Part shown: positions 3,523-41,039 of the stretch, piece after piece
Numbering within the stretch: the stretch's first letter is position 1
How the letters are laid out: the number at the start of each line of letters is the position of its first letter
Assembly: GCA_016182335.1 (NCBI GenBank)
Contig: JACOXK010000057.1
Coordinates: forward strand, 706 to 64,705
Direction: 5' to 3'
Length of the DNA stretch: 64,000 bases
Source of the DNA: Deltaproteobacteria bacterium
GTDB lineage: Bacteria; Bdellovibrionota; JACOXK01
Notes under the pieces: generated by a model
The model's database searches: none
Told to the model about the DNA's origin: nothing
The model's input: only the letters and a program-made list of their open reading frames with translations
Position numbers and translations under genes: made by a program

Positions 3523-5271
3523 ATGGCACAAGTTCAATCCAATGCCGCAGTATCTCAAGAGAAGTCACTGGAAGAGCAAGTTCAGGACAAAGTTTTTCTT
3601 ACAAGCTTAGATAAGCTCGTGAATTGGGGGCGAAAAAATTCACTTTGGCCCATGCCCATGGGTATTTCTTGTTGCGCCATCGAGATGATGGCATTTGTTG
3701 GTCCAAAATTCGACGTAGCACGTTTTGGCTCTGAAGCCTTGCGCTTTTCGCCTCGCCAGGCCGATGTCATGATCGTTGCCGGCACACTTACCTACAAGAT
3801 GGCTCCTATTGTAAGAAGAATTTACGACCAGATGATGGAACCTAAGTGGGTTATTGCCATGGGGGCTTGTCTGCTGACAGGAGGCATGTACGATAGTTAT
3901 TCTGTTGTCCAGGGGTTGGATAAAATCATTCCTGTGGACGTCTATTTACCAGGATGCCCTCCTAGGCCAGAAGCCATCATAGAAGCAGTTCGAGAAACTC
4001 AGAAAAAAGTAGGTAAAATGACTCCTACAAAGGGATACAAACGTGATTTTTATCCTATTAAAGTGCCTGTTCCAAAGGCAGACACACAATTTACTCATAA
4101 AAAACCAAATACGCTAGTTTTAAATATGGGTCCACAACATCCAAGTACGCATGGAGTTCTCCGTGTGGTTTTGGAATTAGATGGAGAAAAAGTTGTGTCG
4201 GCCTATCCTGACATTGGGTACTTGCATCGTGGTTACGAAAAAATTGCTGAAAATAGAACTTATTATCAATACATTCCTTACACGGATCGTCTCGATTATC
4301 TGACAGCGCCTGGCAATAACATTTCTTATTGTATGGCTGTAGAAAAACTTTTGGGAATAGAAACGCCCAAGCGCTGTCAGTATTTACGGGTTCTCATTTA
4401 TGAATTGGCTAGAATTGCAAGCCATCTGGTAGCCATCGGAACTTACAGCCTTGATGTGGGTGCCGCTACAGTATTTTTTCACACGTGGAGTGAGCGAGAA
4501 GAAATTTATGCGCTTTATGAAATGATTTGTGGAGCACGACTGACGACGAGTTTAGCCAGGGTAGGTGGAATGATGCGAGATACAACTCCTGAGTTTATCC
4601 AAGGAGTTCGAAAATTTAGCAATCATTTTTCTAAAAAAATTGATGAGTATGAAAAGCTTCTGTCTAAAAATAGGATTTGGCTCAACAGAACCAAAAATGT
4701 GGGCGTTATTTCAAAAGAATTGGCATTGAGATATTCTCTAACAGGTCCAGTGCTTAGAGCTTCTGGAATCAACTGGGATCTTCGCAAAAACATGCCCTAT
4801 CTTGCCTATTCAGATTTTGATTTTGATGTTCCGCTGGGAGAGAATGGAGATTGTTATGATCGATATCTGGTAAGAATTCAAGAAATGCGTGAAAGTTTAA
4901 AAATTGTTAAGCAAGCGCTTGAAAATTTGCCATCAGGCCCTTTACGTGTCACGGATCGTCCTGACATCGTCATTCCCTCCAAAAAAGACGTTTATACGAA
5001 GATGGAATCTTTGATTTATCATTTTAAAATCATGTCTCAGGGATTTAATGTGCCTTTAGGTGAAGTGTATTTTGCCACTGAAAGTTCTAAAGGAGAGCTT
5101 GGCTGGTACATTCAAAGTGATGGGTCCTCGCATCCAAAAAGGCTTCGCATTCATAGCCCCTCTTTTATGAACATTCAGGTTTTACCAGAAATTGTTGAGG
5201 GAGCCCTCTTTACGGATGTCATTACGACAATTGCAAGTTTAGATCCTGTGATGGGAGAGATTGATAAATAG
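3523..5271 (+). CDS. nuoBD: NuoB-NuoD fusion protein (complex I 20-kDa/PSST + 49-kDa subunits fused, no NuoC domain)
   Basis: Residues ~1-180 are NuoB ([17 protein letters not shown] ... [10 protein letters not shown], carrying the N2 cluster cysteines). After a ~25-aa linker comes NuoD ([17 protein letters not shown] ... C-terminal DPVMGEIDK). There is no space for the ~150-aa NuoC domain. Confidence 0.85.
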
Positions 5272-5273
5272 TT

Positions 5274-7055
5274 ATGCAAATAACAATAAATGATAAAAAA
5301 TTAGAATGTGAAAAAGGTCAGACAATTATTCAGGTGGCTGATCAAAACGACATTAAGATTCCTCGTTTTTGCTATCATCCCAATTTAGAAGTTGTGGCTC
5401 AATGCCGCATGTGTCTTGTAGAAGTTGAAGGTGTAAGAAAACCTCTCGCTGCTTGTTCCACACCTTTGACAGATGGCATGGTCGTGAAAACGGCAAGTCC
5501 ATTAGCCAAAGAAGCACAGGAATCTGTCTTAGAATTTCTTCTCATTAATCACCCGCTTGATTGTCCTATTTGTGACAAAGGTGGAGAGTGCCCTCTTCAA
5601 AATAATGCTTTTGGATATGGTCGGGTTGAGAGTCATATGTTGGACACGAAACGACGTCTTGAGAAGAACAAAGATTTTGGACAGCACATTGTTTTCGACA
5701 CGGAGCGGTGCATTTTGTGTTCTCGATGTGAGCGTTTTTGTAAGGAAATTACGGGAACTGCAGAGATAGGTATTGTTCATCGTGGCTCTAAAAGTGAAAT
5801 AGCTGTTTTTGATGAAAAAGGAGTTGATAACGATTTTAGTTTAAATGTTGTCGATCTTTGTCCTGTTGGGGCTCTAACGAATAAAGATTTTCGTTTTAAA
5901 GCAAGGCCCTGGGAAATGAAAGCGACAAAGAGTTTTTGTCCTTCCTGTCAACTTGGTTGTTCATCGCAGTTTTGGGTGAAGACAAGCTTTAAGGACCAGA
6001 AAATGCTTCGTATGAATTCCCCAGGGGACGCTGATAATTGGCTTTGTGATTACGGTCGTGGAAACTACAAGGTTTTTAATAATCAAGATGTTCATTTGAA
6101 AGAGCCTCAGATTCGGGTGAGGGGGCAGCTTGTAAAGGCTTCTTGGCAGGACGCTTTGCAAAGAGCTCATGAACTTTTATCTGGAGTAGATGTACAGTTT
6201 ATGTTTTCTGGAAATTTAACTAGCGAAGCTCTGGATGAAGTTCTTCCGCTTATTGCTTCCTGTCATCCTGAGGCGAACCAGAAAGAATCACATCCTTTAA
6301 TTAAATCTTGGAAATATTTAAAGGAAAAAGATCTTTTATTATCATTGCGAGGGTCGCATGGCGTCCCATGGCAATCTATATCTTTCAAAAAACTCATTCA
6401 GGTGGAGCAAACCGTCCAAAAATACTTACCGGTTTTTTATTTGGACTTAAGAAAAGCTGGAGTAAGTTTTGAAGAAGTTGGTTCATTGAAAGATGTTGAA
6501 CTGGGTGAAGGAGTGGCTGTGTCTATTCCAGAAAGCATTTTGGGAACCGAGGAAGGTTTTGAATCTGTAAAGAAGATTAAGAGTCCATCGTCAGTTATCC
6601 CTCTTTTTTCAGCTTCAAATACCATAGCACTTCTAGAGAGAGGTTTAATCCCCTGGCAAGTGTTCTATTGTCATCCTGAGCGAGGCCCTTCGCTGTCGCT
6701 CTGGGTAAACTCCGGATCGATATTTCCTTCTTTAGTTAATAGGATTGTGTACTTCACCGGCCGAACATTAAAACAAAATTTTGATTATGCTCCTTTAAAA
6801 AAGGCTTTCGAAGGCTCAAAACTCATTCTTCAAGATACAATTGAAAGTCCGCTGTGTGATATTGCAGAGGTGGTTCTTCCCATGCAGGACTTAGCAGAAT
6901 CGGGTGGGCATTATAGAACTTATTATTCTTTTTGGAAGGGAACAGATGAGGCCCGCTTTGAGAAATGTATGAACCCAGTGGGTGATTCACTCCCTGATTG
7001 GAAGATTTTCCAATCTCTTCAGCATTCCTTATATTCCAAGGCTGAAAACTCATAA
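5274..7055 (+). CDS. nuoG: NuoG-like Fe-S protein (2Fe-2S ferredoxin + 4Fe-4S N-terminal domains of the complex I 75-kDa subunit; divergent C-terminal half)
   Basis: The N-terminus has a 2Fe-2S motif (C..C..C...C in MQITINDKKLECEKG...CRMCLVEV), then HPLDCPICDKGGECPLQ, CILCSRCERFC and CPVGAL. Its start overlaps the nuoBD stop. The C-terminal ~300 aa are not a typical molybdopterin domain. Confidence 0.7.
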   Translation: MQITINDKKLECEKGQTIIQVADQNDIKIPRFCYHPNLEVVAQCRMCLVEVEGVRKPLAACSTPLTDGMVVKTASPLAKEAQESVLEFLLINHPLDCPICDKGGECPLQNNAFGYGRVESHMLDTKRRLEKNKDFGQHIVFDTERCILCSRCERFCKEITGTAEIGIVHRGSKSEIAVFDEKGVDNDFSLNVVDLCPVGALTNKDFRFKARPWEMKATKSFCPSCQLGCSSQFWVKTSFKDQKMLRMNSPGDADNWLCDYGRGNYKVFNNQDVHLKEPQIRVRGQLVKASWQDALQRAHELLSGVDVQFMFSGNLTSEALDEVLPLIASCHPEANQKESHPLIKSWKYLKEKDLLLSLRGSHGVPWQSISFKKLIQVEQTVQKYLPVFYLDLRKAGVSFEEVGSLKDVELGEGVAVSIPESILGTEEGFESVKKIKSPSSVIPLFSASNTIALLERGLIPWQVFYCHPERGPSLSLWVNSGSIFPSLVNRIVYFTGRTLKQNFDYAPLKKAFEGSKLILQDTIESPLCDIAEVVLPMQDLAESGGHYRTYYSFWKGTDEARFEKCMNPVGDSLPDWKIFQSLQHSLYSKAENS

Positions 7056-7362: not shown

Positions 7363-7671
7363 CTATTCTAACTCCACTCTAACAATATTAGACTTTTCAT
7401 CAAGAGTAACATCGACAGGCAGATTGGAAGCAAAGGCTGTTAATAGTGCATGATAGATATTTTGTGATAAGAAAGCAGATCCCTGATCGTTTCTTAGAAA
7501 TGTTTTTTTTGAATCTCCCTTTTTTTCCACATCTGTAAATGTAACCTCGAATTCAGAAGCAGAAATCTCAAATTTTTTAATTTTGACGCCTCGAAGAGTA
7601 GCATTGCCTTCGGCAAATCCTACTGAAGTGAAAATCATAACGGCTAATAACGATACAACTATACTTTTCAT
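7363..7671 (-). CDS. hypothetical small secreted protein
   Basis: Internal Met start gives MKSIVVSLLAVMIFTSVGFAEG, a signal peptide. 102 aa. The upstream extension of the track ORF is probably non-coding. Confidence 0.4.
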   Translation of the reverse strand: MKSIVVSLLAVMIFTSVGFAEGNATLRGVKIKKFEISASEFEVTFTDVEKKGDSKKTFLRNDQGSAFLSQNIYHALLTAFASNLPVDVTLDEKSNIVRVELE

Positions 7672-7817
7672 AATGACCTCCTGTTTAGACGAGCGCACAA
7701 TGCACTCGAATATAGAGCCAGACTCTAATGGGCTGTTTTTTTTTGCAAGTTTTTTAAATTCACTATAAAGGACTAAAATGAGTTGTAAGAAATCTGTGAT
7801 GTCGATATAAAAATCAT

Positions 7818-8184
7818 ATGGGTGGAGAAAAAATCGCGCTTCCAAAAGAGCTTGTTTATTTGGATACAAATATTATCAGTTTTTACTTTGATGAAGTGTC
7901 TAGATTTGATAAAGAAGATTTCGATTTTACCGGGAGATCATAAGGAAATTGATCAAATTGCAAGATACTATATTGAGCATTACCTAGCACCTAAGGAAGA
8001 CATTGAGGATTTTCGCGGAGATGCCATTCATATGGCAGTTTGTGCTTTTTATAAGGTTGATTATTTGCTAACATGGAATTTGAAGCATTTAGCTAATGTG
8101 AATAAACTGAGACAGCTTAAAATTATGAATGCTAGAATGGCGCTAGCAACTCCACAAATAGTAACGCCAGATCAGTTATTATAA
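7818..8184 (+). pseudogene. PIN-domain (VapC-like) toxin gene interrupted by a frameshift
   Basis: The frame starting at ATG 7818 encodes MGGEKIALPKELVYLDTNIISFYFDE..., a PIN N-terminal (L)DTN motif, and stops at 7941. The +1 frame continues from ~7925 with ...DAIHMAVCAFYKVDYLLTWNLKHLAN, the PIN D-x-H-A / LxTxNxKxF C-terminal motifs. Together they make ~126 aa. Confidence 0.5.
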
Positions 8185-8196
8185 AGAGGAGAGGTT

Positions 8197-8406
8197 ATGA
8201 AAGCCAGTAAAAAAAATGGGGAATTAATTATGGGAAAACATGAAAACCCTGTTGACTTTTTTAGGCGTGTTAGAAGGCAGCTCATGGCAAAATATGACAA
8301 TGACGTTTCAAAATATATGGATTCCATTCGAGAAGAGGAAAAAAAACATAAAAATCGCCTCATTGATCTAAAGACGTTGCCCAAGAGAATCAATATAGAA
8401 AGTTAA
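8197..8406 (+). CDS. hypothetical small basic protein (possible partner of the PIN-like gene)
   Basis: Strong SD AGAGGAGAGG 4 nt before the ATG. 69 aa and Lys/Arg-rich. It lies 13 nt downstream of the PIN-like ORF. Confidence 0.4.
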   Translation: MKASKKNGELIMGKHENPVDFFRRVRRQLMAKYDNDVSKYMDSIREEEKKHKNRLIDLKTLPKRINIES

Positions 8407-8572
8407 AGGTATTTCTCTACCTGTATAGCAATCATTCCAAAGTTACAGTACGTAAGTTACTCTATAATGGATACAAACGTGGCAACCTCCTTGACCTTTT
8501 TGGTCTCGAGGTAAATTACGCACACAATGCGTAATTTATCATGTCGTTTGCAGAGATTACCAAGTAGTCCGT

Positions 8573-9322
8573 TTATGCGCTTAAGAAAATTTTTTTAAAT
8601 TTTCTGGCAATTATATAAATAGGATCATAAAAGCGTGAAACAACTCGTTCTTTCAAAGGGATAATAGCATTGTCGGTGATGACAATCTCTTCAGGGCACA
8701 CCTCAGTACAACACCTTGTAATATTGCAATACCCTACCCCTAAGTGTTCCTTAACAAAAGGTATTCTATCCCTCTTATCCAGTGGATGCATGGCAAGAGA
8801 GGCTGTTCGAACTAAAAAACGAGGCCCACCAAAATTTTGTTTTTGCTGGTGTGCGCGTATGACGTGGCATACATCCTGACAGAGAAAACACTCGATACAC
8901 TTTCGAAACTCTTGAATGCGATCTATATCTTTCTGTTGCATGCGCCACGTTCCATCAACATCACGTTCAATCGGATCAAATGGTGGAATTTTTTTGTTAA
9001 CTTCATAATTCCAAGAAACATCTGTCACAAGATCTTTTATAACGGGAAAAGATTTCATGGGTTCAACTCGGATACTTTTTTGGTCCTTAAAATTATCTAG
9101 TCGGGTCATACAGGTAAGAACTGGTTTTCCGTTAACTTCAGCCGAGCACGAGCCACACTTTCCTGCTTTGCAATTCCATCGAACTGCAAGTGTTGGGTCA
9201 TACTTTGCCTGAACATGATGAATAGCATCCAACACCACCATTCCCGGATGAACAGGTACTGAATAATCTCTAAACTCACCCTTTTCTTTTCCGCGATAAA
9301 TTTGTAAATTAATCTCTTTCAT
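8573..9322 (-). CDS. sdhB: succinate dehydrogenase/fumarate reductase iron-sulfur subunit
   Basis: Has the 2Fe-2S motif CKAGKCGSCSAEVNGKPVLTC and the 4Fe-4S/3Fe-4S motif CIECFLCQDVC ... CCTEVCP. Start taken at MKEINLQIYRG. Confidence 0.85.
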   Translation of the reverse strand: MKEINLQIYRGKEKGEFRDYSVPVHPGMVVLDAIHHVQAKYDPTLAVRWNCKAGKCGSCSAEVNGKPVLTCMTRLDNFKDQKSIRVEPMKSFPVIKDLVTDVSWNYEVNKKIPPFDPIERDVDGTWRMQQKDIDRIQEFRKCIECFLCQDVCHVIRAHQQKQNFGGPRFLVRTASLAMHPLDKRDRIPFVKEHLGVGYCNITRCCTEVCPEEIVITDNAIIPLKERVVSRFYDPIYIIARKFKKIFLSA

Positions 9323-9418
9323 AGGATTGCCACGGTTGCTGCACAACCTCGCAATGACACTATTGATCCTTCGCCTTCCGAAGCTGAAGCTGTGTAAGGC
9401 TCAGGATGACATATCAAC

Positions 9419-11209
9419 TCACATACCAACAAGGAGGGCACTTATCTCCTCTGTCATCTCGGGTAGAGGAATGTGAGAAACTTCCATCTCCTCACCTTTT
9501 TTTCGAATGACGACATTTATTTTAGAAAACTTCTCATCATAGTTTGGAAAATCAACTCTCGTATGCCCACCACGGCTTTCTTTTCGTTCCAAAGCAGCCC
9601 TAGTCATAGCCTCTGAGACGGTCATCAAGGCATAAAGATCCAATGCCTGGTGCCAACCAGGGTTGAAATCACGATTTCCATCTACTTTTACTTGAGGTAA
9701 CTCTTTTTTAAGATTGGCTAAGTCAACCAAAGCTTGCTTCAATTCACTTTCTTCCCTGGCAATATTGACGTTTCTAGACATTGTGTCTTGTAATTTCTCA
9801 AAAACATCGTAAGGATTCAAGCCTTCTGTTTTGTTTAAAGGGGCGAGCATTTCTTGAAACGACTTATCCACTTCTGCTTCATTCACCTTCGTAAAAGTAC
9901 TTTTTTTCTTGGCTGTTTGTGCAGCGAAATAGCCAGCACGCCTTCCAAAGACAAGAAGATCACTTAAAGAATTACCACCCAAACGATTAGCTCCATGCAA
10001 CCCAGCTGAACATTCTCCAGCTGCATAAAGACCTTGTACAGTTGATTCCTGAGTTTCTGCGTCAACTCGCACCCCACCCATCATGTAATGTGCTGTGGGA
10101 GCCACTTCCATAGGTTGTTTGGTAATATCCACATCGGCTAATTTCTTAAATTGATGATACATGCTGGGGAGTTTTTTCTTGATGTAATCAGCAGGTCTGC
10201 GTGACGCAATATCCAAATGAACCCCACCATGGGCAGTTCCACGCCCGCCATTGACTTCTTTCATAATGGCACGGGCAACGACATCTCTTGTTAACAATTC
10301 AGGAGCTCGTCGTGCCCCTTTTTCACCCAGGTACCACCTTTCAGCTTCATCCAATGTGTCTGCTGTATCTTCTTTGTAGGCTTCAGGAATATTCTTAAAC
10401 ATGAATCTCTCACCATGAGAATTTGTAAGAATACCACCTTCCCCTCGAACTGCCTCGGTAATAAGAGTGCCTTTGACGCTTGGCGGCCACACCATTCCCG
10501 TAGGATGAAATTGCATAAACTCTAAATCGATGAGATCGGCACCAGCATGATACGCTAAAGCATGTCCATCTCCTGTGTATTCCCAAGAGTTACTCGATAC
10601 TTTAAAACATTTACCAACACCACCTGTGGCTAAAATAATCGATTTTGCTTTAAATAAGACAAACTTTCCAGAGGGACGCCAATAACCCACGGCTCCACAG
10701 ATACGACCATCATCTATTAATAGTTTTTGAACATTGCATTCCATGTAAACTTCAATGCCTTGATGAATGCCTTTGTCCTGAAGAGTTCGAATTAATTCTA
10801 AACCTGTTCTATCTCCTACGTGAGCTAATCGCGGATATCTGTGTCCACCAAAGTTTCTTTGTAAAATTCTGCCATCTTCTGTGCGGTCAAATACAGCCCC
10901 CCAAGCCTCAAGCTCATTAACTCTCTCTGGAGCTTCTTTCGCGTGGATCTGGGCCATTTTCCAGTTATTAAGCATTTTGCCACCACGCATTGTGTCTCTA
11001 AAATGCACTTGCCAGTTGTCTTCCATTGCTACGTTACCCAAAGCAGCAGCCATGCCGCCTTCGGCCATTACTGTGTGAGCTTTTCCTAGAAGGGATTTAC
11101 AAACAATACCTGTTGAAACTCCGTGAGCAGATGCTTCAATAGCAGCACGCAAGCCAGCACCACCGGCTCCAATGACGAGAACATCATGTTCAACAACTTG
11201 AAAATCCAT
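9419..11209 (-). CDS. sdhA: succinate dehydrogenase/fumarate reductase flavoprotein subunit
   Basis: FAD-binding DVLVIGAGGAGLRAA, HTVMAEGG (covalent-FAD His), and a conserved C-terminal domain. 596 aa. Confidence 0.9.
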   Translation of the reverse strand: MDFQVVEHDVLVIGAGGAGLRAAIEASAHGVSTGIVCKSLLGKAHTVMAEGGMAAALGNVAMEDNWQVHFRDTMRGGKMLNNWKMAQIHAKEAPERVNELEAWGAVFDRTEDGRILQRNFGGHRYPRLAHVGDRTGLELIRTLQDKGIHQGIEVYMECNVQKLLIDDGRICGAVGYWRPSGKFVLFKAKSIILATGGVGKCFKVSSNSWEYTGDGHALAYHAGADLIDLEFMQFHPTGMVWPPSVKGTLITEAVRGEGGILTNSHGERFMFKNIPEAYKEDTADTLDEAERWYLGEKGARRAPELLTRDVVARAIMKEVNGGRGTAHGGVHLDIASRRPADYIKKKLPSMYHQFKKLADVDITKQPMEVAPTAHYMMGGVRVDAETQESTVQGLYAAGECSAGLHGANRLGGNSLSDLLVFGRRAGYFAAQTAKKKSTFTKVNEAEVDKSFQEMLAPLNKTEGLNPYDVFEKLQDTMSRNVNIAREESELKQALVDLANLKKELPQVKVDGNRDFNPGWHQALDLYALMTVSEAMTRAALERKESRGGHTRVDFPNYDEKFSKINVVIRKKGEEMEVSHIPLPEMTEEISALLVGM

Positions 11210-11943
11210 TAGAAAATTCTAAAATCTTTTATAATTCCCATAGAGACAAGACGAACATATAAGTCTGAAAAACCAACCATAAAAAGAGAAAGCCAGGCCC
11301 ACAGCATGTGCTTTTTGTTCAAACAACTCACTACTTCCCATGTTTTGTGTTGAACGTCTCCCGGTGTGCCACATTTTGAAAAACAATCCATTCGTCCACC
11401 GACAAGATGTCTTAAACTATGGCATGAAAAAGTATAAAGAGATAAAAGAGACGTATTAGCAAAAAGAACAAGAGTTCCTGCTCCAATTCCAAAACCATTT
11501 TCAAAACGGGTCGCGTGATAAACATCGATCCAAAGAATTACGATAAAAATAAGCGCAAGATAAAGAAAACAGCGATGAATGTTTTGAAAGATAAAAGGAA
11601 AATTCGTTTCCCCCTTATATTTTCTGATTTTTAAATCTCCCACAGCACAGGCTGGAGGTGAAAGAAAAAATGCCCTGTAATAAGCTTTTCGATAGTAATA
11701 GCAGGTAGCACGAAATCCTGCCGGTGCCCAAAGAATGAGAAAGGCAGGGGACCATTTCCACCAATCGACTACAATTAAAGGGGAGTAAAATGGGGAAAGG
11801 TAAGGCCCCCATTGATAGTGTTCTCCTTGAAATGCGGCCCACGCCGAATAAATGCCAAAAAGACTCAGCCCAATAAAGACAGCTAGCGGGCTCAACCACC
11901 AAAAATCTTTTCGAGATGTTTCAAGAAATTGTTCTTCTCTCAC
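11209..11943 (-). CDS. sdhC: succinate dehydrogenase cytochrome b subunit (single large membrane anchor, type B-like)
   Basis: 244-aa polytopic membrane protein with conserved His residues, directly upstream of and overlapping sdhA (ATGA junction). Confidence 0.6.
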   Translation of the reverse strand: MREEQFLETSRKDFWWLSPLAVFIGLSLFGIYSAWAAFQGEHYQWGPYLSPFYSPLIVVDWWKWSPAFLILWAPAGFRATCYYYRKAYYRAFFLSPPACAVGDLKIRKYKGETNFPFIFQNIHRCFLYLALIFIVILWIDVYHATRFENGFGIGAGTLVLFANTSLLSLYTFSCHSLRHLVGGRMDCFSKCGTPGDVQHKTWEVVSCLNKKHMLWAWLSLFMVGFSDLYVRLVSMGIIKDFRIF

Positions 11944-11982
11944 CTGTAGTTTCTTCGGGCTATCATAGGGTCAAAATCTTAG

Positions 11983-12186
11983 TCAAGTTTCTTCCATCGT
12001 TATTCGATAAGAAGTTTGTTCGTCTATAAATTTCTCATAAACTAAATGCGCAAAATAATACTGATCTTTTACATTGGTATTAGGATCAAGTTCTAAGATG
12101 TATCCTTGTTTTCGAATTTTTTTCATAAGCCTTTTCAATCGAATCTTAATTTTGTCTTGTTGATTCATGATGGCTTGCATAAGCAA
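11983..12186 (-). CDS. hypothetical small protein
   Basis: 67-aa ORF upstream of sdhC. No recognisable motif. Could be non-coding. Confidence 0.2.
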   Translation of the reverse strand: MLMQAIMNQQDKIKIRLKRLMKKIRKQGYILELDPNTNVKDQYYFAHLVYEKFIDEQTSYRITMEET

Positions 12187-38031: not shown

Positions 38032-38526
38032 ATGAGAATTCAATACCTTATCCTATTAACACTGTCTGGCTTCGTTGTAGCACTTGATCAAGTAACAAAA
38101 CTTTATGTTTCATCTCATTATCTACTTGGACAGACATTAGTTATCCTTGAGAACGTACTTCATGTAACTTACAGCAAGAATGTTGCTGGGATGTTTGATA
38201 TGTTTCAAAGTGTTTCTGAAGGGATACGTCTTTTTTTCTTTCTTCTGATTCCAGCCATAGCAATTGTCTTTATTTTAGGTGTGGTTATTAAGTATAAAAA
38301 TCTAGCTCTTGGATCAACGATTGGTTTTTCTCTCATTGTAGGTGGTGCTTTGGGAAATATGTTAGATCGAATTCGATTTCAATCGGTGATTGGTTTTCTT
38401 GATTTTGCATTTTTACCAAAAAGACATCCTATGAATGTGGCTGATTTCTTCCTTCTTTTGGGAGGAGCCATTTTGTTTGTTTGTATTGTGCGATCAAAAT
38501 TTTTAGCACAAGATAAAATCTTATGA
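38032..38526 (+). CDS. lspA: lipoprotein signal peptidase II paralog
   Basis: LspA boxes VALDQVTK, NVAGMFDMF (N-x-G-x-x-F), IGFLDFAF, MNVADFFLLLG (FNVAD-like). 164 aa with 4 TM. Confidence 0.65.
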   Translation: MRIQYLILLTLSGFVVALDQVTKLYVSSHYLLGQTLVILENVLHVTYSKNVAGMFDMFQSVSEGIRLFFFLLIPAIAIVFILGVVIKYKNLALGSTIGFSLIVGGALGNMLDRIRFQSVIGFLDFAFLPKRHPMNVADFFLLLGGAILFVCIVRSKFLAQDKIL

Positions 38527-39029
38527 AAAAAACATATTTTCTTATACCGTGGGTTTCTTTTTGGGTGGTTTTAGATCAAGTTACCAAGTATTTGATTAGC
38601 GTTAAACTAGAGTTACACGAATCTCTCGCTCTCATTCCGGGTTTTTTAAGTTTTACATTTATTTATAATGAGGGTGGAGCTTTTGGTTTTCTATCAGGGC
38701 AATCTGAAGTGTTAAGAAATCTTATTTTTGTACTCATTCCTATTTTCGTTATTGGACTGATTGTTTACCTGTGCATCAAAGCACCTTCCCACCAAAAGTT
38801 GCATATTGTAAGTCTTGGACTTGTTTTGGCTGGGGCTTTTGGGAATATGATTGATCGTTTATGGTTAGGAAAGGTTCGGGATTTCATTGATTTTGACTTA
38901 AGTTTTATCCTTGGTTTTTTCTACCATTGGCCTGCTTTCAATGTTGCAGATTCGACGATCTGTGTTGGGGTTTTTCTCTTGGCGTATCACATGCTTTTTC
39001 TTGATAAGAAAGACTCTGCATCCTTATGA
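38523..39029 (+). CDS. lspA: lipoprotein signal peptidase II
   Basis: VVLDQVTK, IYNEGGAFGF, VRDFIDFDL, FNVADSTICVG are the canonical LspA motifs. 168 aa. Confidence 0.8.
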   Translation: MKKTYFLIPWVSFWVVLDQVTKYLISVKLELHESLALIPGFLSFTFIYNEGGAFGFLSGQSEVLRNLIFVLIPIFVIGLIVYLCIKAPSHQKLHIVSLGLVLAGAFGNMIDRLWLGKVRDFIDFDLSFILGFFYHWPAFNVADSTICVGVFLLAYHMLFLDKKDSASL

Positions 39030-39823
39030 TTCCAGTTTTGTTTAAAATCCCTCTTCCTTTTTTAAATCAACCGTTTGAAGTAAGAGCCTATGGGGTTCTC
39101 ATAGCCCTTGGTTTTCTATTGATATTGCCATTAGCTATTCGTCAGGCGCGCAAAGAGGGAATTTCTTCAAATACAATTATCGATGTTGGTTTTTGGGGGC
39201 TTTTAATGGGCCTCATTGGTGCCAGGGTTCTTTACATTGTAACGGAATGGGAAGCTTATAAAGCAGATCTGGTTTCAATTTTTTACCTTTGGGAAGGTGG
39301 GCTTGTATTTTACGGAGGGTTACTTGCTGGTTGTGCAACCCTTATTTTTTACGCAAAGAAGAAACACATACCTTTAGGAAAACTCTTAGATGTAGGTGCT
39401 CCCGCAGTTGCTTTTGTGCACTTCTTTGGTCGACTTGGTTGCTTAGCAGCAGGTTGTTGTTTTGGTAAGCCAACACAACTTCCATGGGGGATATTTTTTA
39501 AAAATCCGGAGGCCTTTGCACGGCCTTTAAACACCCCTCTTCATCCTACACAGATATATGAAATGGGAGGGCTTCTTTTTTTGTTTGTATTTCTCTATTT
39601 TGTATTAAGCAAATATAAGAAATTTGATGGGCAGCTGGCCTTGTCGTATTTGATTCTTTATTCCGTGTTTCGTTTTGTGGTAGAGTTTTTCAGAGGGGAT
39701 GATATTCGAGGGTTTGTCATACCCAATCTTATTTCCACTTCTCAGTTTGTGAGTCTTGTAATTTTTCTTGTAACTGTACCCGTCTTTATTTATTTTTATA
39801 AGAAGGCCAAAATTAAGCGATAG
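39026..39823 (+). CDS. lgt: prolipoprotein diacylglyceryl transferase
   Basis: Lgt signature GARVLYIV ... FGRLGCLAAGCCFGKPT in a polytopic membrane protein. 265 aa. Confidence 0.85.
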   Translation: MIPVLFKIPLPFLNQPFEVRAYGVLIALGFLLILPLAIRQARKEGISSNTIIDVGFWGLLMGLIGARVLYIVTEWEAYKADLVSIFYLWEGGLVFYGGLLAGCATLIFYAKKKHIPLGKLLDVGAPAVAFVHFFGRLGCLAAGCCFGKPTQLPWGIFFKNPEAFARPLNTPLHPTQIYEMGGLLFLFVFLYFVLSKYKKFDGQLALSYLILYSVFRFVVEFFRGDDIRGFVIPNLISTSQFVSLVIFLVTVPVFIYFYKKAKIKR

Positions 39824-39875: not shown

Positions 39876-41039
39876 ATGTTCCGTAGAGTAATAAAACTTA
39901 GTCATTCCAATAGCTTCTTCCTGTTTGGCCCGAGGGGAACTGGCAAAACAACACTCATAAAACAGCTCTTTTCAAATGATCATGTTTTATGGATAGATTT
40001 ACTCAAAGATGAAGATGAAGAAAAATTTCGAATTAATCCAGACCTACTATCTGAAATTTTGGCAAATAATCCTTATGAATGGGTTGTTATTGATGAGGTT
40101 CAGAAGATTCCAAAGCTGCTAGACATCATACACCTGGAAATTGAAAAGAAAAAAACGAAGTTTGTCTTGACCGGATCTAGCGCTCGAAAGCTTAAAAGAG
40201 GAGCTGCGAATCTCCTGGCAGGTAGAGCATTTACCTATCAACTCTATCCACTGTGCCACATAGAACTTGGTGATTCTTTTCAATTGGAAGATCTGCTTCA
40301 ATTTGGGTCCCTACCTCATCTCTATGAACTTACAACAAAACAAGATCGTATAGAATTTTTGAGAAGTTATGTAAAAACCTATTTGAAAGAAGAAATTTTG
40401 TCAGAGCAGCTGATAAGAAAAGTCGATCCTTTCCGAGATTTTTTGGAAGTTTCTGCACAAACTAATGGACAAATTATTAGCTACGAAAAAATAGCGGATG
40501 ATCTTGGGGTGGATGGGAAAACTGTTCAGACTTATTTTCAAATCCTTGAAGATACTTTGTTAGGATTTAAACTGGAATCCTATCATCGATCTGTCAGAAA
40601 GAGGCAGAGGGTTGCCCCTAAATTTTATCTTTTTGATCTTGGTATCAAGCGTGCTTTAGATCATTCCATGAAGCAAGAACTACAGCCTGAAACTTATGAT
40701 TTCGGGCAAGCTTTTGAGCACTTTATTATTTTGGAGACACAAAGATTGAATGAATATTTTCGGCTTGATTTTAAGATGTCTTATTTACGTACTAAAGACG
40801 GAGCCGAAATTGATCTTATTATTGAAAGACCTGGTGAAGCAACCATTTTAGTAGAAATTAAATCAACAAAAAATACAACGAGTCGACATACATCTCATTT
40901 GGAACGATTTTATAAAGATTGGGGAAAGACTGTGGAAGCACATCTTTGGTCCCTCGACCCGCATGAAAAGAAAATTGGAAATGTCATTTGTCTTCCGTGG
41001 AAGAAAGGCCTCAGCGCTGCAGGTTTTAGACAGAATTAA
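39876..41039 (+). CDS. AAA+ ATPase with C-terminal DUF4143-like (restriction-endonuclease-fold) domain
   Basis: Walker A FLFGPRGTGKTTL, Walker B VVIDEVQ, C-terminal ...EIDLIIERPGEATILVEIKSTKN. 387 aa. Confidence 0.7.
   Translation: MFRRVIKLSHSNSFFLFGPRGTGKTTLIKQLFSNDHVLWIDLLKDEDEEKFRINPDLLSEILANNPYEWVVIDEVQKIPKLLDIIHLEIEKKKTKFVLTGSSARKLKRGAANLLAGRAFTYQLYPLCHIELGDSFQLEDLLQFGSLPHLYELTTKQDRIEFLRSYVKTYLKEEILSEQLIRKVDPFRDFLEVSAQTNGQIISYEKIADDLGVDGKTVQTYFQILEDTLLGFKLESYHRSVRKRQRVAPKFYLFDLGIKRALDHSMKQELQPETYDFGQAFEHFIILETQRLNEYFRLDFKMSYLRTKDGAEIDLIIERPGEATILVEIKSTKNTTSRHTSHLERFYKDWGKTVEAHLWSLDPHEKKIGNVICLPWKKGLSAAGFRQN

Follow-up and report, generated by a model that had tools for sequence, protein, structure and literature searches.

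A NuoB-NuoD fusion without NuoC and its NuoG partner: a conserved gene pair of Bdellovibrionota-like bacteria

A 64,000-nucleotide stretch of DNA from a bacterium deposited as Deltaproteobacteria bacterium (assembly GCA_016182335.1, contig JACOXK010000057.1, positions 706 to 64,705 of the forward strand; hereafter the window) carries two adjacent genes related to respiratory complex I. The first, nuoBD, encodes NuoB and NuoD as one polypeptide with no NuoC between them, and the second encodes NuoG. This pair, abbreviated here as BD-G, is conserved among Bdellovibrionota-like bacteria. It is probably the peripheral-arm half of a complex-I-type enzyme whose genes are dispersed, and not a free-standing unit. 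Split nuo gene sets are already known from Bdellovibrio; what appears to be new is the C-less B-D fusion with a conserved NuoG partner.

The nuoBD gene (window positions 3523..5271, + strand, stop codon included) is a single gene for a 582-aa NuoB-NuoD fusion, as supported by its open reading frame (ORF), Pfam and NCBIfam matches, homologous fusions, and purifying selection. The NuoB domain occupies residues 1-165 (3523..4017), a linker of about 30 residues follows (residues 166-196; 4018..4110) at the position that NuoC takes in B-C-D fusions, and the NuoD domain makes up residues 197-582 (4111..5268), all on the + strand. A first-pass annotation of the window had proposed that this one chain holds a complete NuoB and a complete NuoD, and hidden Markov model profiles as well as structure-based references bear this out. 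The domain boundaries are PF01058 (NuoB) at residues 50-157, with 92.8 bits against a cut-off of 27, and PF00346 (NuoD) at residues 311-582. The NuoB models TIGR01957 (residues 24-164; 225 bits, cut-off 142.7) and NF005012 (241.9 bits, cut-off 116) are passed, and so are TIGR01962 for NuoD (residues 197-582; 548.2 bits, cut-off 459.35) and NF004739 (526.8 bits, cut-off 360). Residues 13-164 align without a gap to residues 8-159 of Thermus thermophilus Nqo6, with E. coli NuoB aligned likewise; the alignment of residues 194-582 with Nqo4 22-409 has one gap, of a single residue.

The cofactor residues are in place in both domains. Counted directly in the alignments, C50, C51, C116, and C145 of NuoBD correspond to C45, C46, C111, and C140 of Nqo6, the ligands of cluster N2 in the Thermus structure, and H210, Y259, and D311 correspond to Nqo4 His38, Tyr87, and Asp139, which form the quinone site there. 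The N2 cysteines claimed from the sequence are thus all accounted for. Across 64 family members C50, C51, C116, H210, Y259, and D311 are invariant and C145 is nearly so (90% or more); the GPQHPSTHG motif of the beta1-beta2 loop is also invariant in the family. The earlier statement that the NuoD part is not a hydrogenase large subunit holds as well: NuoBD has no NiFe-ligand cysteines, as both QHPSTHG and the C-terminal DPVMGEIDK lack Cys, and hydrogenase models match it with E = 1e-4 or worse. The structure model of NuoBD has a mean predicted local distance difference test score (pLDDT) of 77.5 and a predicted template modelling score (pTM) of 0.81, and its D domain superimposes on 49-kDa subunits with a target-normalised template modelling score (TM) of 0.94-0.96 and a root-mean-square deviation of 1.8-2.0 A.

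NuoC was said to be absent from the fusion, and the sensitive profile comparison that could have refuted this comes out negative. The Pfam scan of NuoBD finds no PF00329 (NuoC), and when the 64-sequence BD family alignment is compared by hhalign with a profile of 20 NuoC sequences, the probability is 0.5%, with no NuoC signal. The stretch at residues 165-196 between the B and D domains is predicted as coil, has no secondary structure in the model, and is poorly conserved; at about 30 residues it is too short to hold NuoC. The model for B/C/D fusions, NF009808, reaches only 697.5 bits on NuoBD against a cut-off of 1156, and does so in two stretches with the NuoC middle skipped. NuoBD therefore stands outside the known NuoBCD family, since the NuoC block that defines this family was tested for and is absent. 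Two flanking ORFs were considered as a hidden NuoC and rejected, both with an hhalign probability below 0.4%: an upstream ORF of 201 aa resembles a secreted protein, and a downstream ORF of 168 aa has an internal signal-like start. Profile search thus finds no NuoC in NuoBD, NuoG, or the flanking ORFs of the window.

The nuoG gene, an ORF of 593 aa (5274-7055, + strand), starts 2 nt past the nuoBD stop. Its N-terminal half (residues 1-320; 5274..6233, + strand) carries the motifs of the 2Fe-2S cluster N1b and of clusters N5, N4, and an N7-like cluster, in line with the first description of the gene as NuoG-like with an Fe-S N-terminus. Three Pfam domains, Fer2_4, NADH-G_4Fe-4S_3, and Fer4_Nqo3, lie within these N-terminal 320 residues, and residues 2-303 match 75-kDa subunits in the PDB with E 9e-80. 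The ligand sets C33/C44/C47/C61 (N1b), H93/C97/C100/C106 (N5), and C146/C149/C152/C196 (N4) are invariant in an alignment of 56 sequences. A fourth motif, C222-x2-C225-x3-C229-x28-C258, is spaced like the cluster N7 motif of E. coli NuoG and Nqo3.

The C-terminal half of NuoG (residues 321-593 plus the stop; 6234..7055, + strand) is a compact, fast-evolving domain that resembles molybdopterin oxidoreductases. It shares 47-49% identity with its nearest relatives, compared with 74-75% for the N-terminal half, although purifying selection persists. Because of this divergent half, the score with the NuoG equivalog model TIGR01973 stays below the cut-off (380.7 bits versus 470.05), with model positions 1-318 of 606 matched by residues 3-319. 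The AlphaFold model (pLDDT 87, pTM 0.86) matches NuoG and 75-kDa chains over the entire length, with a query-normalised TM of 0.72-0.77. Among these matches is the 626-residue NuoG chain of Aquifex, which is similarly compact (target-normalised TM 0.70). The C-terminal half had been called atypical; this is right for its sequence but not for its fold, which is that of NuoG throughout. As judged by its ligands and its predicted fold, and not by the equivalog score, the second protein is a genuine compact NuoG.

The fusion had been described as unusual; it is not confined to one genome. A search of 5.8 billion clustered proteins returns more than 120 clusters of fused BD (clustered at 90% identity), 527-605 aa long and mostly 568-587 aa. 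Those listed are 55-84% identical, all have PF01058 and PF00346, and none has PF00329; clustering at 50% collapses the entire BD family to one representative. Named sources among the listed clusters are metagenome-assembled genomes (MAGs) of Bdellovibrionota/Bdellovibrionales, "Deltaproteobacteria", Krumholzibacteriia, "Nitrospirae", and "Pseudomonadota". The nearest named relatives of the window are Bdellovibrionota MAGs, with identities of 74% for LepA, 60% for NuoG, and 57-64% for BD. In a scan of GTDB genomes with NuoB and NuoD peptides, nearly all the matches listed are canonical B-C-D operons, and the best (L001; locus numbers of this kind are ours) is 58% identical.

Further loci were recovered with a DNA pattern for a short B-D junction (MGxC, 81 nt, GCPP, 150-180 nt, GPxHP). 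The gap from GCPP to GPxHP is 165-174 nt in fused genes, whereas in 79 canonical operons it is 618 nt or longer. The pattern matched 118 metagenome stretches, 47 of which are further fused loci. In a set of 57 fused BD loci, which includes the window and is not de-replicated, ORFs were labelled by BLAST against validated references. Thirty of these loci extend for 1 kb or more downstream of BD, and in 24 of them NuoG is the gene immediately following. With flanks of up to 10 kb, none of NuoA, C, E, F, H, J, K, L, M, or N is found at any of the 57 loci. Likewise, no membrane-arm gene (NuoA, H, J-N) lies beside fused BD in the 118 metagenome stretches or within the 10-kb flanks read for eight family members, of which four are on contigs of 0.5-3.6 Mb.

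Individual relatives differ in what surrounds the pair. The closest (L081; BD 84% identical) has BD-G followed by hicAB and then sdh; it shares the nuoG/sdh layout of the window, with the hicAB pair inserted after nuoG. On a 2.08-Mb scaffold (L082) BD-G stands alone. On a 2.9-Mb contig (L085) the order is BD-G-I, and a lone gene for a 166-aa NuoB paralog (PF01058; 16745-17245) lies 5 kb from this module, next to a FAD_binding_4/FAD-oxidase_C gene. Three Krumholzibacteriia-type loci (L084 14206-18508, L086 14550-19660, and L087) carry an rnf operon, rnfA/E-B-C-D-G-E, behind nuoBD-nuoG-nuoI on the same strand, and then apbE on the opposite strand; L086 and L087 have a SnoaL-like gene ahead of the rnf genes. 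Two ion-pumping redox systems thus stand side by side on these contigs. The protein after NuoG is NuoI in L084, L085, and L001, with 122-128 bits against the TIGR01971 cut-off of 113. The candidate NuoI of another locus (L099) turned out to be a generic ferredoxin with two [4Fe-4S] clusters only.

Elsewhere the module itself is loosened. One locus (L088) has BD without NuoG, placed after an 81-aa NifU-like gene (9763-10008) that overlaps the BD start. In another (L111) BD is followed by genes for an IscA-like carrier and a Mrp/NUBPL-type P-loop NTPase (7503-10064), and by other genes, and NuoI is 9 kb off. Genes of Fe-S assembly therefore occur near nuoBD; NUBPL is a mitochondrial Fe-S assembly factor of complex I. 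Four ORFs downstream of BD in L111 had sizes that suggested NuoL, M, N, and K (683, 535, 444, and 100 aa) and were rejected; these look-alikes prove to be an HdrD/DsrK-like protein, a Pup ligase, a member of the aconitase family, and proteins of unknown function. Directly upstream of nuoBD, on the same strand and throughout the subclade with a 568-aa BD, there is a protein of about 115-135 aa in which a '...TLWDAAQLQ...' motif is conserved (L082 9615-9986, L113, L115, L116, L128, L136, L138, L147, L150, L156, L180, L185, L189, and L200). In L082 it is annotated in a 67-aa form without an NCBIfam or precomputed Pfam match, and the gene is absent from the subclade of the window. Neither this protein nor other recurrent upstream genes of relatives, a GTP cyclohydrolase I look-alike and DUF4340, resembles NuoC, and the same is true of an upstream protein that, by eye only, looks like a metallo-beta-lactamase.

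In a crude neighbour-joining tree of NuoD domains, built without support values, all fused BD and the unfused B-D-G-I locus L001 (58% identity) form one clade inside bacterial NuoD. Three other arrangements caught by the junction pattern place B directly next to D. One is an archaeal-like hot-spring type, (M-L-M-)I-H-A-B-D, accompanied on the other strand by a second, divergent nuoB-nuoC pair (L094, L107, L110, L123, L130, L175, L181, and L206). Another reads I..B-D-F-G (L158, L162, L176, L194, and L205), and the last is G..B-D-I-A-C-H-J-K-L, in which nuoC has moved between nuoA and nuoH (L126, L146, L190, and L207). The NuoD proteins of these three fall in clades separate from fused BD. As the B-next-to-D types are scattered in the tree, nuoC has left the gap between B and D several times, and in at least one type it was merely relocated beside nuoA and nuoH (L207, L146). 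Other fusions were also met. A 140-aa N-terminal extension of the protein P0393 was considered as a NuoA fusion and rejected; the protein is actually a 668-aa NuoI-NuoB-NuoD triple fusion. The next two proteins, P0438 and P0485 in the order listed, are an archaeal-like BD fusion of 553 aa and a BD-like protein of 507 aa in which the N2 cysteines are apparently lost.

Taken together with what is known of complex I, these observations suggest the following mechanism. The nuoBD and nuoG genes, separated by a 2-nt spacer, would form a translationally coupled operon for the peripheral-arm core of a complex-I-type quinone reductase. NuoBD would hold cluster N2 and the site for the quinone headgroup in one chain, and NuoG would supply clusters N1b, N4, N5, and the N7-like cluster. 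Electrons would pass from NuoG to a separately encoded NuoI (N6a/N6b) and from there to N2 of NuoBD. Reduction of quinone by N2 would occur at the interface of NuoBD and NuoH, and a membrane arm encoded separately by nuoAHJKLMN would pump protons. In this scheme NuoBD would dock on the membrane arm, NuoH included, and nuoI would be located elsewhere in the source genome.

Several lines of evidence favour such a split complex I. The N2 ligands and the quinone triad are retained, invariant or, for C145, nearly so, and the quinone site of complex I forms only at the interface with NuoH. In related loci a true NuoI comes after NuoG. Without N6a and N6b, electrons could not cross the long gap between N5 of NuoG and N2, and NuoI is not adjacent in the subclade of the window; essential partners must therefore have their genes elsewhere. 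Moreover, the genes of the module are scattered in relatives such as L088 and L111, so missing neighbours are weak evidence for missing subunits. The literature points in the same direction. In PMC4758237 the nuo operon of Bdellovibrio is entered as "split". According to PMC13147790, a nuoAHJKLMN cluster occurs in all predatory and non-predatory Bdellovibrionota; this cluster includes neither B nor D, G, or I, and is written without C. Something must then supply B, D, G, and I. Of the two possibilities first raised for the pair, a stand-alone module or a split complex I, it is thus the split complex that is favoured, by the conserved residues, NuoI, the scattered genes, and the cluster in the literature.

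There are also points that weigh against a dispersed complex I. The window and the flanks of up to 10 kb at the 57 fused loci contain no membrane-arm gene and no NuoC, NuoE, or NuoF. The link to a membrane arm comes from residue conservation and the two papers, and not from an inspected genome, genomes having been read up to 10 kb around the matches. The organism is only loosely placed, its LepA being 74% identical to that of the nearest named Bdellovibrionota MAG. NuoBD has no insertion that could replace NuoC, as it differs from Nqo4 by only one single-residue gap, and to our knowledge every characterised complex I has NuoC as a core subunit. Finally, the module adjoins an rnf operon in one lineage.

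How a dispersed complex I of this kind would manage NuoC and electron input can be considered further. NuoBD has no insertion to cover the face that binds NuoC, and a lone nuoC, or one placed beside nuoA as in L207, is possible. A true genome-wide absence of NuoC in the BD-carrying clade is a possibility to which we would give somewhat less than even weight. NuoG normally takes electrons from NuoF. Since no NuoE or NuoF lies near any fused locus, these are either encoded elsewhere or another donor is used, as is the case in Campylobacter and Helicobacter. A bolder proposal, which we consider unlikely but worth stating, is that the complex I of the clade consists of A, BD, G, H, I, J, K, L, M, and N and does without NuoC, NuoE, and NuoF. 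The B-D fusion would then replace the NuoC scaffold, and NuoG, through its exposed N1b/N4 end, would dock a donor other than NuoEF, for example ferredoxin or flavodoxin. Use of another donor would fit the neighbouring rnf operon in one lineage.

Among other explanations of the pair, the one that survives best is that BD-G is a paralogous spare set, an alternative or redundant isoform of the Q-module in a genome that would also contain a full canonical nuoA-N operon including B, C, D, and G. The lone extra NuoB paralog 5 kb from the module in L085 could be read in this way. Predatory Bdellovibrionota carry a second nuo set besides nuoAHJKLMN, as stated in PMC13147790, but the cluster reported there as universal lacks B, D, G, and I. 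Further, fused BD forms one strongly constrained clade that is kept across several named phyla, unlike a redundant copy. We therefore regard a spare set as improbable.

Less probable still is that NuoBD and NuoG, with NuoI in some lineages, form a stand-alone Fe-S oxidoreductase that is soluble or loosely associated with the membrane and passes electrons to a soluble acceptor or a different membrane complex, for example Rnf. In its favour, no membrane-arm gene stands next to any of the 57 fused loci, and the Krumholzibacteriia-type BD-G-I lies directly upstream of the rnf genes on the same strand. However, the adjacency to rnf is seen in one lineage only, and the three loci concerned have identical upstream genes. 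The invariant His/Tyr/Asp triad and GPQHPSTHG belong to a site that needs NuoH, and distant partners would be needed anyway, NuoI not being adjacent in the subclade of the window. The stand-alone alternative is accordingly disfavoured.

The least credible explanation is that the fusion is an artefact or a decaying remnant, produced by an assembly or frameshift error, or that the NuoB half is untranslated and the true protein is a NuoD of 417 aa. In its favour is the public annotation. GenBank lists nuoBD as MBI2026728.1, a 417-aa "NuoD" that starts at the internal Met166, and labels the nuoG product (MBI2026729.1) as "(2Fe-2S)-binding protein". As a result, the NuoB half (window 3523-4017) is unannotated though intact and highly constrained. 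The same truncated NuoD call is present in GCA_035290925.1 (L208 462-990), where the real ORF is 593 aa, so that 417 aa only are annotated in two MAGs. Divergence was measured against three relatives; synonymous sites are saturated, with a proportion of synonymous differences (pS) of about 0.7, and the ratio of nonsynonymous to synonymous rates (dN/dS) is thus only rough. The proportion of nonsynonymous differences (pN) in nuoBD is 0.06-0.075 for the NuoB half, 0.10-0.14 for the NuoD half, and about 0.23 for the linker, which makes the NuoB half, with 90% amino-acid identity, the most constrained segment of the gene. Within the reach of sequence evidence, an artefact or pseudogene is refuted by these selection data and by recurrence, since dozens of independent assemblies share the same in-frame fusion and its junction varies in length by only about 3 codons, the allegedly untranslated half is the most conserved, and the cluster cysteines are retained across the family (three invariant, C145 nearly so).

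Comparison with known systems helps to place the pair. Ech-type group 4 [NiFe] hydrogenases, which make H2, have a NuoB-like EchC and a NuoD-like EchE and no recognisable NuoC homologue, and are therefore a precedent for a module of the NuoB/NuoD type that works without NuoC. In contrast to NuoBD, Ech keeps the NiFe cysteines; NuoBD has none and keeps the residues of the quinone site. The complex I of Campylobacter and Helicobacter keeps NuoG and has NuoE and NuoF replaced by two other genes, in a single operon with NuoC. As in these bacteria, NuoG has no adjoining NuoE or NuoF here, so that the donor may not be NADH; the difference is that NuoG here begins 2 nt past BD and no local gene takes the place of E or F.

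Relative to canonical complex I (NuoB/Nqo6, NuoD/Nqo4, and NuoG/Nqo3; T. thermophilus 4HEA and Aquifex aeolicus 7Q5Y), the domains, cluster ligands, quinone residues, and folds are alike, whereas B and D form one chain, no NuoC adjoins them, and the genes are apart from nuoA, C, E, F, H, I, and J-N. The NuoBCD fusion (NF009808), described in 'NUO12' operons of some deltaproteobacteria in PMC4758237 and PMC4453560, also has B and D in one polypeptide and in the same order, but in NuoBD a coil of about 30 residues stands where that protein has a NuoC block of about 200 residues. The BCD fusions among our loci (L103, L184) belong to another NuoD clade and lie in operons with nuoA, E, and F. Split nuo sets resemble the proposed dispersed arrangement in that genes of the membrane and peripheral arms occupy separate loci, as in Bdellovibrio (PMC4758237), in Bdellovibrionota with nuoAHJKLMN (PMC13147790), and in the partial nuoAHJKLMN clusters of Streptomyces. 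The Bdellovibrio and Bdellovibrionota sets apparently come from the same phylum as the organism of the window; the portions of these sources at hand do not describe a C-less B-D fusion or a BD-G pair. In the literature searched, no description of a C-less B-D fusion with a conserved NuoG partner, of 'nuoBD', or of an absence of NuoC was found, and no dedicated NCBIfam model for a C-less B-D fusion was matched.

The rest of the window was searched by tblastn with all ORFs of 70 aa or more taken from ten canonical nuo loci; the subunit labels of these loci were checked with Pfam on one of them (L046). Matches are confined to the NuoB, NuoD, and NuoG regions. In agreement with the first-pass annotation, which had seen no NuoE/F or membrane-arm genes in the 64 kb, tblastn and Pfam scans of most of the larger ORFs find none of NuoA, C, E, F, H, I, J, K, L, M, or N in the window. 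Pfam identifies ftsK, inositol monophosphatase, sdh, ilvC, corA, copA, lepA, and lepB among the other genes, and further pyrB, pyrC, carAB, ileS, two lspA, lgt, opp, rpoD, and dnaG. An operon for succinate dehydrogenase/fumarate reductase (sdh; 8573-11943, - strand) converges on nuoG; its first gene, of 244 aa, has no Pfam or NCBIfam match. A small ORF past sdhB (7363-7869, - strand) has an internal start that resembles a signal peptide. The two lspA genes, for signal peptidase II, are in tandem and overlap (38032-38526 and 38523-39029), followed by lgt (39026-39823). One AAA_14/DUF4143 ATPase gene is present in the window (39876-41039), and a contig of a related MAG (L208) has three (4996-6162, 8883-10010, and 10976-12127), up to 9 kb downstream of nuoG.

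The public labels have a practical consequence. A "NuoD" that starts from an internal Met in at least two MAGs, together with a "(2Fe-2S)-binding protein", hides the NuoB half, and complex I will consequently be scored as incomplete or missing in automated metabolic reconstructions of Bdellovibrionota and related MAGs. Complex I counts NuoC (NDUFS3 in humans) among its 14 core subunits, and assembly of the Q-module depends on it. Should the genes for NuoC, E, and F merely lie elsewhere, what remains is an unusual gene fusion in a scattered operon. If it is true that a widespread lineage runs a NuoB-NuoD fusion without NuoC, the minimal Q-module would be redefined, and the C-less enzyme would offer a simpler system in which to study quinone reduction and assembly.

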